Sequence record: NC_135731.1
DNA length: 64,000 nucleotides
From: a phage
Direction: 5' to 3' (one strand)
Numbering within the stretch: position 1 is the stretch's first letter; each line of letters starts with the position of its first letter. Below the pieces are notes generated by a model. That model did no database searches and was not told where the DNA came from. It saw only the letters and a list, made by a program, of their open reading frames with translations. The position numbers and the translations under genes were made by a program. Below, in pieces: positions 29,306 to 42,555 of this stretch.

Positions 29306-29539
29306 ATGAAAGTTAAATTTCTTACAGATTTAGGGTACCCTTCCTTAGTTGACTGCGTTGGTAAAATTGTGGAAGCAAAACGACTATCTGCAAACGATAA
29401 TGTTGTCATGGTTAAGGGAAAAGATTTACTATCTGCAGGTGCAGAGTCTGGCAGGATCTCTCCTGATTATATGTATTACCTATCTTTAAGTAATCTGCCA
29501 GAGCGAGGCGGTAAAGGCCTTGAAGTTGTGGAGGAGTGA
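29306..29539 (+). CDS. small acidic protein, MKVK paralog family
   Basis: MKVKFL...VKGKDLLSAGA...EVVEE shared with paralogs at 32966, 33183, 35057, 35325. Confidence 0.55.
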   Translation: MKVKFLTDLGYPSLVDCVGKIVEAKRLSANDNVVMVKGKDLLSAGAESGRISPDYMYYLSLSNLPERGGKGLEVVEE

Positions 29540-32685: not shown

Positions 32686-32969
32686 CAATGAAAAAGATTA
32701 ACAGTGGTGAAGTTGAGTTTAAACTTGTCGGGAAAGGCACTTACTGGGAAGTTCGTCAAAAGGTATATTTGTTCGGTCTTATTCCCTATTGGTCTAAATT
32801 CTACTGGGGAGCTAACGAGTGGGGAAGATACGCCACCAAATCAATGGCACTTATTGGTATAGCAGAGTACATTGCAGCCAGAGATAGGGTTGGAGACACT
32901 TATTACTATACTGCGGACGATATTCGTAACAGTGTTTACGTCCCACAACCACCTGATGGAGACCGTTGA
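32682..32969 (+). CDS. hypothetical protein (95 aa)
   Basis: ATGA-coupled ORF. Confidence 0.45.
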   Translation: MTMKKINSGEVEFKLVGKGTYWEVRQKVYLFGLIPYWSKFYWGANEWGRYATKSMALIGIAEYIAARDRVGDTYYYTADDIRNSVYVPQPPDGDR

Positions 32970-33193
32970 TGAAAGTTAAAGTTTTAGATTCAAGCTTCTA
33001 TATTGGTCAGGAGCCTTTAGTAGGAAAAGTGTTTACTGCTATCCCTAACGAAGATTACCCTGACCTTTTAAAAATAAAAGGAGCAGATCTTATTGCCGCT
33101 GGTGCATCTCAGGACTGCTTTGACAGTCAGTGGACCTACAACTTTGCCCTAGGCGAGGATGTAGAGGTAGTGGAGGACGATCATGAAGGTTAA
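32966..33193 (+). CDS. small acidic protein, MKVK paralog family
   Basis: MKVKVLDS...KIKGADLIAAGA...EVVEDD. Confidence 0.55.
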   Translation: MMKVKVLDSSFYIGQEPLVGKVFTAIPNEDYPDLLKIKGADLIAAGASQDCFDSQWTYNFALGEDVEVVEDDHEG

Positions 33194-33437
33194 AATTCTT
33201 GATTCTAACGTCTACTTGGGACAATCCTTCCTGAAGGGAAAGGTCGTTCCTGCGGTATACTTTGAAGGGTTGCCGTGGGATGATCCTGTGCGGCAACATC
33301 ACAGTTATGTAGGCCACAACGTGGTGTTTATCTTGGGATCAGACCTGATCACCGTTGGTGCACCTGAATATTATTTCGGGGAAGAGTCCTATTATGCCTT
33401 TGGGGTAGGGTCAGATGCGGATATTGTAGAGCTGTGA
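33183..33437 (+). CDS. small acidic protein, MKVK paralog family
   Basis: MKVKILDS...LGSDLITVGA...IVEL. Confidence 0.55.
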   Translation: MKVKILDSNVYLGQSFLKGKVVPAVYFEGLPWDDPVRQHHSYVGHNVVFILGSDLITVGAPEYYFGEESYYAFGVGSDADIVEL

Positions 33438-33449
33438 TGGGTAACTGTT

Positions 33450-33848
33450 GTGAAAAATAAACTGTTTAAAGTTACAATGAAAATTCGCGGAGCTTGGAGC
33501 GTAAAGCAAGGGCGTATTCCGGAATTTGAGAAAGACTTCTACGTAGTCTCCACCTCGGAGGAGGCTGCATGCTGGCAGGCTGGCTATGCCTATGCAAGAA
33601 CCTGGTACGAAGGATACCAGACTGGGGGCTATGACGGAGAAATTATCAGCAAGGGTGTAGAAGAAATTAATGTGTTGACAAGTGAAAAAGTTTTTGTTAT
33701 AGTGCATCCAGATTCCAGAGTGAAGCATTACTGGAATGCCAGAACAAAAACTTGGACACCGTTTGCAGATTCTGCTACACCACTTTTAAACCAAAAAGCT
33801 CTTGACTCTGCCCCAAGCTATGGGGTTGTTGAAGAAAAGCTAAACTGA
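33450..33848 (+). CDS. hypothetical protein, paralog of 35657-36052
   Basis: Shares HYWNARTKTWTP / YYWDVLNNEWTP region with paralog; GTG start supported by paralog alignment. Confidence 0.5.
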   Translation: MKNKLFKVTMKIRGAWSVKQGRIPEFEKDFYVVSTSEEAACWQAGYAYARTWYEGYQTGGYDGEIISKGVEEINVLTSEKVFVIVHPDSRVKHYWNARTKTWTPFADSATPLLNQKALDSAPSYGVVEEKLN

Positions 33849-33865
33849 AACAGTGAGGTGTCACT

Positions 33866-34156
33866 ATGATGGATTTAGTTCTGAATATTGATAACGCAGG
33901 AGAGGTTAAAGACGATGGTGTAACAAGCATGGACCAACCATGCCCTGCCAAGATTGACTCAAAATGGACATATAAGTTTGACGGAGAGATCTTTGCAAAT
34001 GATGAAAAGGTTGTAGATGCTGCAGCCATTTTGAACGCTCTAGGGTACGACCCTGTGAATTCTTTGATCAAGGATCCTGTTGAGTTTGCAGAGTATGTTC
34101 GAAAAATGGCAGATCTTGCTGTAGATATTTTAAGAACTATCGACAACAAGCTGTAA
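33866..34156 (+). CDS. hypothetical acidic protein (96 aa)
   Basis: ORF with GAGGTG RBS. Confidence 0.45.
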   Translation: MMDLVLNIDNAGEVKDDGVTSMDQPCPAKIDSKWTYKFDGEIFANDEKVVDAAAILNALGYDPVNSLIKDPVEFAEYVRKMADLAVDILRTIDNKL

Positions 34157-34161
34157 AACTG

Positions 34162-34190
34162 TTGACACAACGCTTCAGATTTAGTATCAT
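34162..34190 (+). promoter_or_regulatory. sigma70-type promoter
   Basis: TTGACA-17 nt-TATCAT, followed by hairpin AAGAGGG...CCCTCTT. Confidence 0.5.
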
Positions 34191-34237
34191 TGTTTTCAAA
34201 GAGGGTTTGGTTCCCTCTTCTTTAAAAGGAACACGTT

Positions 34238-34555
34238 ATGCAAATTGAAATCACTGGCAACGTAGAAATCACTGAAGGTATGGTGTCTTTCATTTCCCAC
34301 AAAATGTCTAAGCTGGAGCGTTTGCACCCATCTGCCAACTATGCACGTGTGAGTGTAAAAGTTGAAAATGATCACCAGGAAGTTATGGCGTTCATTTTTG
34401 ACAATTCTGGAAAAGAAGTTATTGCCAAGGCTAAAGGCAGTGATGCTTACGAGGCAACTGACCGTATGGTAGATGTTGCAGCACGTCAGCTGGCTAAATG
34501 CGGTGGAAAGAAAGGTAAGGGGAAAGGCAAAGTAAAGATTGACTTTGGAGAATGA
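34238..34555 (+). CDS. Ribosome hibernation promoting factor homolog (HPF/RaiA/YfiA family)
   Basis: MQIEITGNVEITEGM...KLERL...VKVEN...AKGSDAYEATDRMVDVAARQLAK aligns with E. coli HPF MQLNITGNNVEITEAL...KLEQY...LKVEK...AEGQDMYAAIDGLIDKLARQLTK; lysine-rich tail. Confidence 0.7.
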   Translation: MQIEITGNVEITEGMVSFISHKMSKLERLHPSANYARVSVKVENDHQEVMAFIFDNSGKEVIAKAKGSDAYEATDRMVDVAARQLAKCGGKKGKGKGKVKIDFGE

Positions 34556-34692
34556 GGTGCTACAATGGGTGTGATTAAGAAATTAGTCCCAAATGTAGAG
34601 ATTGCATGCTTTGAAATTATGTTTGCAATCGCAGTTGTAGTTAATGTGTTAGGTTACGGCTATTAATATCAAATAATTGAGGAGACCTCTAA

Positions 34693-34962
34693 ATGAAAAT
34701 TAAATTATTCAAAACCGAGCTGGCAGACAAAAACTGTGGACTGGTTGAAGGCATGATCGTTGAAGCACAACCAGTAGACTACATGAAGGTAGTTCGTGAT
34801 GCCTTGGGTGAAGGTTTTGATCTGATGGAACCAGCTCTGCGAGAAGATGTTATCGAGATGGCTAAAAAGCACACACCTGAAGGCATGGTGGTGTTTGTTG
34901 CACCGGGTAACGGAGAAGAGTTGATTGTAACCCCTGATGTGTATAAGATTGTAGAAGAGTAA
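34693..34962 (+). CDS. small acidic protein, MKIK paralog family
   Basis: MKIKLFK start, ends KIVEE; GAGGAG RBS. Confidence 0.5.
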   Translation: MKIKLFKTELADKNCGLVEGMIVEAQPVDYMKVVRDALGEGFDLMEPALREDVIEMAKKHTPEGMVVFVAPGNGEELIVTPDVYKIVEE

Positions 34963-35056
34963 TCCTGCTTGGATTAGCATGCTTCCTCAATAAAAAGAGA
35001 AGTTTGTAATTATTTGTGGGAAAGGAATCCCAATCTCTTACCAGAGGTGATACTAT

Positions 35057-35320
35057 ATGATTGTTTATTTTAAAACTTCAGGTGGATACCCTGATTCTCA
35101 AAGCTTGATTGGAAAAACGTGCACAGCATACTCGCCTCTAGATGATGAGGTAAGTGATACCCTACGAAATATGTACCGGATTGATCCACAAGAAGCTTTT
35201 GATCAAAACCTTGTATTTGTTAAAGGCTCAGACATGAAGGCTTTGGGGGCATTTCCTGAAGCAGATGATGATGCTGTTTATTCGTTTATGACTCCTTTTG
35301 AAGCTATGGTTGTTGGGTGA
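35057..35320 (+). CDS. small acidic protein, MKVK paralog family
   Basis: GYPDSQSLIGK...VKGSDMKALGA motif shared with paralogs. Confidence 0.5.
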   Translation: MIVYFKTSGGYPDSQSLIGKTCTAYSPLDDEVSDTLRNMYRIDPQEAFDQNLVFVKGSDMKALGAFPEADDDAVYSFMTPFEAMVVG

Positions 35321-35324
35321 TAAT

Positions 35325-35657
35325 ATGAAAGTACGCTTTATTGGTGAAACAATTCCTGTGCATCTTCGGTCGCCTGAGGATTCTGCAGATCTTGCATCTC
35401 AAAAGGCCAGAGGGTATGATAAGAAAGTAACCTCAACCGATGTAGTGCTTGAGGCTACTAGTCTGCCCGACCCTGCTGCATTCTTTAATCATTATGGATA
35501 CTATTTCAGCAATCTGATGAATATCGGTGAGCTTGTGTTTATTAGCGGTGGAGAAATTGTTAGCAAGCTTGGCGGCGATCCGGATGTCTTTCATGAAACC
35601 TGTCCTTTTGCATTTGTGGTTGGTTCAGATGTGGAAGTTATTGAGGAGGTGCGGTAA
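35325..35657 (+). CDS. small acidic protein, MKVK paralog family
   Basis: Internal ATG (MKVRFIGE) of ORF 35298; ends EVIEEVR. Confidence 0.5.
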   Translation: MKVRFIGETIPVHLRSPEDSADLASQKARGYDKKVTSTDVVLEATSLPDPAAFFNHYGYYFSNLMNIGELVFISGGEIVSKLGGDPDVFHETCPFAFVVGSDVEVIEEVR

Positions 35658-36052
35658 TGGTAAGCCTATACCGTGTTGAGTATAGCTCAGATACTGTGTA
35701 CAACGTAAGAAGCAAAGATCGCAGCGACAGAGTGCAAGAAATGTATGTTCTTGCCGACAGTCCGTTATCTGCAGCGTTCAAGGCAGGGGCTCTTGCATCT
35801 CGTTGGAAATTTGAAGGCGGATCTTTCTATGAAGAAACCCTTGAAGATTCTGTTGTTATTTCTTCTGTAGAGGTTTCAGATGACTACGAAGGGAAAAAGT
35901 TCGTAATGCGGCACCCGCACAGCAACATTGCGTACTACTGGGATGTTCTTAACAACGAGTGGACCCCAGATCTTCAGAAGGCTACTGTGCTAACACCGTT
36001 TTTGGCAGATAAGTTCCCACCAGAAGGTAATTTATCCGCACTGTTTCAGTAA
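35657..36052 (+). CDS. hypothetical protein, paralog of 33450-33848
   Basis: ATGA-coupled; paralog similarity. Confidence 0.5.
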   Translation: MVSLYRVEYSSDTVYNVRSKDRSDRVQEMYVLADSPLSAAFKAGALASRWKFEGGSFYEETLEDSVVISSVEVSDDYEGKKFVMRHPHSNIAYYWDVLNNEWTPDLQKATVLTPFLADKFPPEGNLSALFQ

Positions 36053-40046: not shown

Positions 40047-40395
40047 CACACAATTAGCTGCCTGGCTAAAGTGCTGGAGCACCTATAGCACATCTTTCAA
40101 CTAAATTTCCTACCACCACAATCACTTACCTCCCACACATGACTGTTTGCTTGTTTAGTGAGCAGTCATGCCTTGACATTCTTGTCTATCCTGATAAAAT
40201 TAAGTTCTTCTCTTTTCTTTTACCGAGTAATTCGGGTTTTCTGTTCTCTTCGGTTTGAAGGGGTATGGAGATACACCTGAGTGAACAGGGTGAACAACCG
40301 AACCATTGGCTATGGCATTAGCATGGCGAAGCGGACGGGTGACGAAAGAGGGGCCGGAGGACACTAGTCACTGCCATATGATATATGGGTGATAA

Positions 40396-40958
40396 CCTGA
40401 AGAGTCTGAATAAGTGTTTAAGTACCAGTCAGAGGAAAAGGTGAATGGTAGCCGAAGGGGGAGGGGGGTTTCTTGTATCTTTAATTTGTATATTATGCAT
40501 ACACTTGTAAACCAATCTCATCTGAATCTGTTTACCACACAAAGTGGATTGAGACAAATATTACCTATTAAACCTGAATTATTTATAGAAAATACCACAA
40601 CACCACTTAAGTCTTTGATTTTACACATAAATCCTACAGATATTCACCCTCCATATTTAACATACTTGTAACATATCCCATACTCTACCTGTCTGATCAA
40701 TTTCCCCAACCACATCCCCATATTTTCCCTTCCTGTACTACCCCTGCCCCGCCGGGAGTCCCGTCATATCTGGCTTTCCAGCAAATATCACACCCACAAA
40801 TATCATTGCCTGAAGAGGGTTTCATCCCATAATACATGCCTTACCTGAAGAGCGCTTCATATACCCCGTAAATTTTTTAATTGACCCCCCTCCCCGCCGC
40901 CGGAGAGGTTGGCTTTTCCCACACAGACCTGAAGAGTCAGCCAGAAATATCTGAAGAG
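40396..40958. repeat. five dispersed YCTGAAGAG direct repeats
   Basis: Copies at 40396, 40809, 40844, 40928, 40950 in non-coding DNA. Confidence 0.6.
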
Positions 40959-41240
40959 GGTCCAGTTCTACCCTGTCAGGAGCCGGTAGCGACTGGAGTG
41001 CTGCCAGGCGGACGAAATGGGAATACTTCTCATTCTTATAACAATTCTCAAATATCGAGGCAGTGAGGCAAATTAATAGGTTAGGCCGTTCACACAGTGG
41101 CACAACATTTGCAACCTATCTTGTGGGAGTGAATGAGAATACCTATCATTGTGAGAATAGTTATCATTACGGGCAATTTAACATAATACCCATTATGCGC
41201 ACCACTGGCGATACATACAGGGATTGATAACATGAGTTAC

Positions 41241-42102
41241 TGTTTACACACATAACAATTATATTTCTTACTATTTGTGTGGGATATAGTTAGCAGCCGA
41301 TAGATTAGATATTGACCTGCGGACTTCTGACCATCTAGACGTCTAAACGCCCACACAACAAGGCTTATACATACATCGCTGAATGTAAACAGGGCCGCAA
41401 AAATGCTACCATACAAGCTTGTAAATTTTTCATGCAGCACTTGACAAAGAGGAGAAAAACTTGTCTGACACAATATGACTTAATTGCCACAACATGACAC
41501 TTTTGCACACCTGATTGTTTGCATATCTAATAGTTTACATGGATAACTGTTCACATACTTATCATTTACATGATTGACTGTTTACACAGAGATGATAAGC
41601 CATGCCATTCGTTTGCATGATAACAATTAACCAGTTTACAATTAACAAGTTAATAATCTTTCGCTGGCTATGCCAGGTGACTAGGTCACCCCTTCAGGTG
41701 TTTCTATGACATAATATAAAAGCAGGGCAACTATTAGCAGATCTATAGTTGCCTTGCTTGTCATGTCATGATTAACTAAATACAAGGCAACTATGATCTG
41801 ATTAATAGTTTGCAGACAAACTATCACGGGGGTGATGGTTACTGCTTTTATATTATGTCGCGACTCCGTCGCGCCATGCCATTCGTTTGCATAGTTGCCT
41901 TATTGTTACGAATAAAACAATTGCATTGTTAATGATTTCTTATCTTTCTCTTAGTCATCTAATGATTCCAGTCAGTATAGTAATGTACAGTAAACATTAG
42001 ACGACTAAAGATTTCTCTGTTTATTATAACTTACCGTTACAATTTCGGACTGTTTACCAAGAATGTTGACACATAAGCTGATTTATGTTATGCAGTTTAC
42101 AC
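41241..42102. repeat. iteron cluster, at least 8 copies of GTTTACA-type motif
   Basis: Copies at 41241, 41534, 41548, 41565, 41580, 41633, 42051, 42095; plus duplicated CCATGCCATTCGTTTGCAT at 41590 and 41864. Confidence 0.6.
41656..41839. repeat. nested palindrome / cruciform-capable region
   Basis: 18-bp perfect inverted repeat GACATAATATAAAAGCAG (41688-41705 and 41822-41839) enclosing palindrome GGCAACTAT...ATAGTTGCC (41706-41733); GGTGAC-TAG-GTCACC at 41656. Confidence 0.65.
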
Positions 42103-42517
42103 GAATAATTATTTTATGCAGGTATTGACTATTCCGTTATTCCATGGTTGGAATAAATACTTAGCAGACTATAGAATGGTGAGCGTACGTAAATTCTGAG
42201 ATCTGGCGGCTATAGTTATACTCGATTTTTCACGTAGAACACGCTTTTGTGAGTGTGTAAGTGTATGACTTATAAAGATTTTTAGTTGTTGACAAGATAT
42301 TGAAGATGTGCATCAGGTTAAATTTTGTGCAATAGCGGCATTACGTGCAATCTTGAGAGAGAAAACGGGTAAAAATGGCCCTGCTACCACACAATGAAAA
42401 ATTATGCAATAGTTATTTTACATGTATGTTTGTACAGTGTGTGGGATTGATGGCTAGTCAATTATTCCACTTGCCAGGCTGGGCCGTTTGTGGTAGGAGA
42501 AATACAGACAAAAAGAA

Positions 42518-42537
42518 AGGGGCCTTTTAAAGCCCCT
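42518..42537 (-). terminator. Rho-independent terminator for minus-strand block
   Basis: AGGGGC...GCCCCT hairpin followed on minus strand by TTCTTTTTGTC. Confidence 0.55.
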
Positions 42538-42555
42538 GATAGTTTAGTTAAGAAA

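Follow-up and report, generated by a model that had tools for sequence, protein, structure and literature searches.

A phage-borne HPF/YfiA-family protein in rV5-like Escherichia coli phages, with altered ribosome contacts and a possible role as competitor of host hibernation factors

The open reading frame at 34238-34555 of the window (the whole 64,000-nucleotide stretch of phage DNA analysed here, record NC_135731.1) encodes a member of the HPF/YfiA family of ribosome hibernation factors, which combines an HPF-type predicted fold, conservation under selection and a promoter sequence of its own with a pattern of kept and replaced ribosome contacts. From these features we infer ribosome binding, competition with host factors and a benefit to the phage; in our tentative reading, to which we give somewhat less than an even chance, the protein would occupy the vacant A/P channel of the 30S in a salt-labile manner, compete with host RaiA/HPF(+RMF) and keep idle ribosomes within reach of the phage. 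GenBank annotation and a published proposal (Mizuno et al. 2019) already cover the gene, its homology and the main hypothesis, and the discovery value is small for that reason; what the present analysis adds is the interface at residue level, the charge of the tail, the age of the lineage, the selection acting on it, the absence of RMF, and a lead concerning host RaiA. The features of the locus are as follows.

34162..34190, + strand: σ70-type promoter TTGACA-17 nt-TATCAT (putative), equivalent of rV5 P144; 11/12 consensus match
34226..34230, + strand: Shine-Dalgarno-like AAGGA, 7 nt upstream of the ATG; read from the sequence
34238..34555, + strand: hpf-like open reading frame, ATG start, 105 aa
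34238..34501, + strand: S30AE / HPF-type core domain (β-α-β-β-β-α), codons 1-88; from Pfam and AlphaFold2
34502..34552, + strand: basic Gly/Lys-rich tail, predicted disordered, codons 89-105 (GGKKGKGKGKVKIDFGE); from charge count and pLDDT
34553..34555, + strand: stop codon TGA; read from the sequence

The protein of 105 residues begins with MQIEITGNVEITEGM and ends with KCGGKKGKGKGKVKIDFGE (translation of 34238-34555, + strand), exactly as quoted in an earlier sequence-only reading of this DNA. The equivalent of the Shine-Dalgarno-like site carries a ribosome_binding_site annotation in phage Murica. The GC content of the gene (0.428) is close to that of the window (0.427), and its GC3 falls inside the range of the neighbouring genes. 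The window is phage DNA and belongs to a Vequintavirus, an rV5-like E. coli myovirus; over 33000-36000 it matched Escherichia phage phiWec196 at 100% identity, and rV5 and some 115 further genomes at ~97%.

We searched the protein against profile collections, and it matched Pfam PF02482 (Ribosomal_S30AE) over residues 3-88 with 48.3 bits (cutoff 23.7, E = 1.8e-12); similarly, TIGR00741, the NCBIfam model of the HPF/YfiA family, gave 45.9 bits against a 40.9-bit cutoff. A phmmer search of PDB chains returned 2rql, 4v8h and 6h4n (E = 5e-12 to 2.5e-11, residues 1-89), ranking E. coli HPF first and recovering the alignment to that protein quoted beforehand. The AlphaFold2 model, computed from a 21-sequence alignment, had a mean pLDDT of 85, with a core above 90, and a predicted β-α-β-β-β-α topology (E2-7, H13-29, E33-43, E46-55, E60-67, H70-89). 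When this model was compared with the PDB by Foldseek, all 36 matches with E ≤ 1e-3 were HPF/YfiA/pY/RafH chains; the top match was Vibrio cholerae HPF (4hei; TM 0.93, rmsd 1.0 Å), and chain 6h4n_x, the E. coli HPF of a 100S ribosome, was matched at 41% identity with an rmsd of 1.1 Å. The structure prediction thus recovered an HPF-type fold, with E. coli and Vibrio HPF matched at ~1 Å, and the claim of HPF/RaiA homology made from the sequence stands in full, as profile, fold and alignment all agree.

Membership of the family does not extend to either named subgroup. The protein scored higher against the γ-proteobacterial short HPF equivalog model (NF007780, 55.8 bits) than against the RaiA/YfiA equivalog model (NF007654, 17.6 bits), but both scores were far below the respective cutoffs of 125 and 158 bits; judged by these profiles, it is therefore an ortholog of neither HPF nor RaiA. 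Long HPFs (Firmicutes-type, self-dimerising) carry a dimerisation domain after a linker and reach ~180-190 aa in total, whereas this C-terminal domain is absent from the phage protein, which has 105 aa, one Pfam domain, and predicted disorder at residues 89-105. With the short HPF of E. coli and other γ-proteobacteria (YhbH; 2rql, 6h4n, 4hei) it shares the single-domain fold (rmsd ~1 Å, 40-44% identity) and the N-terminal MQ(I/L)xITGN(N)VEIT and α2 RQLxK motifs; it is, however, 10 residues longer, has a Gly/Lys tail where HPF has KHKDKLKQH, has a pI of 8.7 as opposed to 6.5, and is encoded outside any rpoN operon. With E. coli RaiA (YfiA / protein Y) it shares the fold, presumably the binding site, and a C-terminal extension past HPF length, but the two are only 21% identical; furthermore, the RaiA tail is unrelated in sequence and carries a charge of -4, compared with +4 for the phage tail, so the acidic extension of RaiA is absent.

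The lysine-rich tail described from the sequence was borne out: residues 89-105 have a net charge of +4, and residues 92-100 have pLDDT <50 in the AlphaFold2 model, indicating predicted disorder. In a second phage lineage, 64% identical over the protein, the tail differs yet is also basic (SKSKGIDKRTAKWDY, net +3). The DNA that encodes the tail (34502-34552; loci L006, L007, L009) is an indel hotspot, through indels in repeat DNA, and protein length among alleles is 99, 103, 105 or 106 aa; the YN3 allele lacks 'VK' and encodes 103 aa, and a 1-nt deletion in GGGGAAAGGC cuts the Murica protein to 99 aa. At the other end of the protein, the V18 and Murica alleles have an additional Asn (GNNVEIT), which gives the same spacing as in E. 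coli HPF, and the Typing phage 4 allele has a GTG start codon. In YfiA the tail extends in the direction of the RMF site, and it is linked to 70S, not 100S, hibernation.

We then examined the residues through which HPF contacts the ribosome, using the contact list for E. hormaechei, P. aeruginosa and E. coli HPF in a recent preprint (10.1101/2025.10.07.680626). The phage protein keeps K26, E44, E60, D75, R83, K87 and K91, together with all near-invariant columns of the family, and replaces six contacts (Y30→L, R33→S, T53→F, H55→F, K80→V, K89→G). H55 pairs with E60 and holds the uS9 C-terminus (10.1101/2025.10.07.680626), and the two replaced lysines are strongly conserved elsewhere: K80 in 103/103 Enterobacterales HPFs and 14/18 diverse homologs, and K89 in 102/103 and 14/18, respectively. 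The second phage lineage likewise has L30 and F55 and lacks a basic residue at positions 80 and 89, most replacements being common to both lineages. Judged from the residues alone, loss of K80 and K89 could abolish ribosome binding altogether; the tail lysines, for their part, might make up for the replaced contacts. As for the partner with which HPF forms 100S ribosomes, a tblastn search with E. coli RMF as query (E ≤ 1) gave no RMF homolog in 50,697 phage records. Formation of 100S dimers by the phage protein on its own is unlikely, because RMF is not encoded by the phage and a dimerisation domain is missing from the protein.

The assertion that the gene has its own promoter also held, on the grounds of the sequence, its conservation across genomes, and the annotation of rV5. 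The hexamers TTGACA (34162-34167) and TATCAT (34185-34190) are separated by a 17-nt spacer, and the rV5 record DQ832317 lists the same element as 'Sigma70-type promoter; P144'. Both hexamers are kept in six Vequintavirus genomes, and YN3 has TATTAT; in the 64%-identical lineage an equivalent site (TTGACA-17-AATTAT with an extended -10 TG) occupies the same position. Counting sites that fit the consensus at 11 or 12 positions, we found 11 on the + strand and 10 on the - strand of the window, ~10-fold more than the 0.9 ± 1.05 per strand expected from a first-order Markov model. All 11 matches on the + strand lie within 5.6-40.2 kb, where genes run rightward, and 9 of the 10 on the - strand lie within 43-61 kb, where genes run leftward. 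Enriched and co-oriented with the genes as they are, these matches represent a real promoter class and more than chance. Promoter type and genome position are our sole guide to when the gene would be expressed during infection. A hairpin in the 5'-UTR (AAGAGGG-N7-CCCTCTT, 34200-34220) was considered as a further element and rejected; despite a ΔG of -9.9 kcal/mol it had z = -1.0 against shuffles, and it is unconserved, the stem having decayed in the V18, YN3 and L002 alleles.

The gene has been annotated since 2006, when the rV5 GenBank record appeared: the protein is 100% identical to rV5 ORF144 (ABI79209), named 'sigma 54 modulation factor' in DQ832317, and other records use HPF, RaiA (RefSeq), 'ribosome hibernation factor' or S30AE. 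Several records misannotate it as 'ATP-dependent protease La Type I' (OR062525, OR062528, OR062530, MT884008-MT884011), and PHROGs assigns it to phrog_12469 ('unknown function'), apart from the S30EA family phrog_8990. Mizuno et al. (bioRxiv 2017; Nat Commun 2019, PMC6375957) listed an HPF gene for six rV5-like phages and also for Cronobacter phage GAP32, and were the first to propose competition with host factors. In that study the rV5 gene was synthesised and expressed from pBAD24 in E. coli NM522 up to OD 1, and ribosomes were purified via a 500 mM NH4Cl / 1.1 M sucrose cushion before mass spectrometry (PMC6375957). Three peptides of the viral HPF (GSDAYEATDR, VENDHQEVMAFIFDNSGK and VKIDFGE), all of which occur in the open reading frame of our window, were detected in the crude extract only, with none in the 70S/100S fractions; 70S stability and 100S formation were unchanged by expression (PMC6375957). 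The literature yielded no later experimental work on phage HPF besides that of Mizuno et al.

For this outcome the authors named three possible causes: an unsuitable growth phase, a true loss of binding, or dissociation by salt (PMC6375957). The same study provides comparisons, as viral bS21, bL12 and the GAP32 HPF are likewise phage-borne homologs of the translation machinery under purifying selection, with a proposed tuning of host ribosomes, as for rV5 HPF; E. coli ribosomes took up viral bS21 and bL12, but not rV5 HPF (PMC6375957). The sequence-only reading proposed silencing, reprogramming or protection of host ribosomes; the sole experiment on record, being negative, does not support this (PMC6375957). 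That reading had named two observations that would count against it, and they came out on opposite sides: the profile match was positive, while ribosome binding and effect were negative in the published assay (PMC6375957). Genuine loss of ribosome binding is a live alternative, since the viral peptides were absent from 70S/100S and the profile was unchanged; binding may instead be weaker or condition-dependent, because the ribosomes came from end-of-exponential cells and had been washed with 500 mM NH4Cl. The partly remodelled interface, the opposite charge of the tail and the missing RMF may account, at residue level, for the negative outcome of the published binding assay.

The supplementary tables of the same paper contain a further lead. 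Host RaiA (P0AD49) is listed in salt-washed ribosomes of the bS21 strain with one peptide (Supplementary Data 2) and of the bL12 strain with two peptides and six spectra (Supplementary Data 3), but is missing from the list of 71 proteins, reaching down to single-peptide level, for ribosomes of the viral-HPF strain (Supplementary Data 4); RaiA, HPF and RMF were all present in the crude extract of that strain (Supplementary Data 5, PMC6375957). These presences and absences come from single shotgun-MS samples with no listed uninduced control, and RaiA was borderline in one of the comparison samples. We therefore treat it as a lead, not a result, that the missing RaiA may reflect displacement by the viral protein, itself then stripped by 500 mM NH4Cl. 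Together with the pattern of interface, tail and RMF, this lead makes the competition hypothesis directly testable.

In the reading that we favour, host σ70 RNA polymerase would transcribe the gene from its own near-consensus promoter, inside the rV5-like block of small genes, and the core domain would still dock where host HPF and RaiA do, in the empty A/P-site channel of the 30S subunit. Binding would probably be weaker and salt-labile, because several contacts are replaced and a flexible basic tail is substituted. The protein would compete with host RaiA/HPF(+RMF) for idle ribosomes, so that reusable 70S/30S particles would be kept instead of passing into deep hibernation, and phage translation would thereby be favoured in slow-growing or stationary hosts. 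That host RaiA is missing from the ribosomes of cells expressing the viral HPF fits displacement and lends support to a competitor (PMC6375957 tables). A more pointed version, which we consider rather unlikely, is that of an anti-hibernation decoy: a weak, fast-exchanging occupant that would evict RaiA/HPF and block RMF-driven 100S formation, leaving the ribosomes of starved or stationary hosts recruitable for phage mRNAs. If true, it would constitute a viral countermeasure to hibernation, of which the absence of RaiA in the mass-spectrometry tables would be the first trace. Were a function established, it would bear on how common lytic E. coli phages, some of them used in biocontrol or therapy, handle dormant host ribosomes, and on phage efficacy against stationary-phase or slow-growing bacteria.

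A classical hibernation or silencing factor, as proposed in the sequence-only reading, which would bind vacant ribosomes tightly for early shut-off of host translation or for protection of rRNA (the decoding centre and the 16S 3' end) during infection, is in our judgement also unlikely. Such a factor would have the fold of HPF/RaiA and would keep R83, K87, K91, K26, D75 and E60, as the phage protein does; the additional basic tail could raise its affinity for rRNA, and the σ70 promoter suggests expression by unmodified host polymerase. However, five or six conserved contacts are replaced, the protein was lost in the 500 mM NH4Cl wash that retained host RaiA in parallel samples, and its expression left the 70S/100S profile unaffected (PMC6375957). 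Furthermore, a tight blocker of the A/P site would inhibit phage translation too, and no mechanism of escape is evident.

Quite improbable, in our estimate, is a repurposed fold, in which the protein would have given up the ribosome and its dsRBD-like fold and basic tail would bind some other RNA or protein, such as phage or host mRNA, tRNA or a defence component. The negative binding experiment (PMC6375957) is in keeping with it, as is the loss of K80, K89 and the T53/H55 motif in both phage lineages, while strong purifying selection shows that the protein still has a function; below the HPF matches, at ranks 37-49, Foldseek also gave weak matches to dsRNA-binding domains. On the other hand, the residues retained (R83, K87, K91, K26, D75, E60) are exactly ribosome contacts, the near-invariant columns persist, and the neighbouring genes point to no other partner.

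The distribution of the gene bears on its age. Some 118 phage genomes carry it, with presence in essentially all of the ~118 Vequintavirus records, and a single-protein scan of viral contigs gave two near-identical IMG/VR loci only. An exhaustive phmmer search of 1.84 billion representative proteins (E ≤ 1e-3) returned 22 matches; P0004, the phage lineage at 64% identity, is one of them, and among the proteins searched the cellular relatives did not exceed 45% identity; the second-best match (P0006, 1160 aa, matched over 8 stretches) was set aside as a repeat protein unrelated to S30AE. Identity to 103 Enterobacterales HPFs (95 aa) was 35-43%, while those HPFs are at least 76% identical to E. 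coli HPF. Among six Vequintavirus alleles dN/dS was 0.05-0.11 with dS up to 0.36 (Nei-Gojobori), indicating strong purifying selection; against the P0004 lineage, whose gene lies in the same small-ORF block, with synteny kept, on contigs up to 126 kb, dS was saturated and dN was 0.31.

These results suggest that the phage HPF lineage is old and isolated and no recent copy of a host gene. A relatively recent transfer had been suggested from conservation in the alignment (PMC6375957); low cellular identity and the phage-like GC and GC3 argue against it. A neutral passenger, that is, a host hpf captured not long ago and playing no part in infection, could draw on that suggestion by Mizuno et al., but is highly improbable and effectively refuted by selection and divergence, given the low dN/dS, the conserved promoter, the match of GC and GC3 to the phage, the cellular maximum of 45% identity, and the presence of the gene both in essentially all Vequintavirus records and in a lineage at saturated dS.

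S30AE genes of GAP32 and of a few Listeria, Enterococcus and Xanthomonas phages are separate lineages, assigned to PHROG 8990 and not 12469, and tblastn gave no close match between them and the rV5-type gene. A tblastn match labelled 'Salmonella' was discarded, as it lies on a bacterial contig within the phage collection (AGRM01000002) and is no phage HPF; this record is a 691-kb chromosomal contig of Salmonella houtenae filed among phages. Separately, 18 records MG0656xx ('Campylobacter phage C7, C9, A112b...') labelled as Campylobacter jejuni phages shared ~97% identity with rV5-like E. coli phages, which points to wrong host labels or to contaminating phages.

Neighbouring genes had no Pfam matches, and all their PHROG matches were of 'unknown function'; neither tRNA genes nor Rfam families were found in the window. 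A conserved 33-aa hydrophobic ORF (MGVIKKLVPNVEIACFEIMFAIAVVVNVLGYGY; rV5 ORF145, phrog_15151) lies at 34565-34666, 10 nt past the hpf stop codon, and is probably co-transcribed with hpf; a promoter-like site with a 10/12 match (34539-34566) overlaps the 3' end of hpf. Paralogous small genes of phrog_7379 stand on either side of hpf (33450-33848 and 35657-36052; 28% identical, E = 4e-8), and a trio of related proteins of 75-84 aa is encoded at 29306-29539, 32966-33193 and 33183-33437. Further downstream, where the + and - transcription units converge, an ORF-poor stretch of ~2.5 kb (40050-42550) has a GC content down to 0.36 and matches the region 104013-106618 with 'no observable ORFs' of the rV5 paper. 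This stretch may be a replication origin or a regulatory/ncRNA region; a 21-nt motif (ACATGAnTnACTGTTTACACA) occurs in it three times, and it has two perfect repeats, one direct of 20 nt (41599, 41873) and one inverted of 18 nt (41708, 41842).
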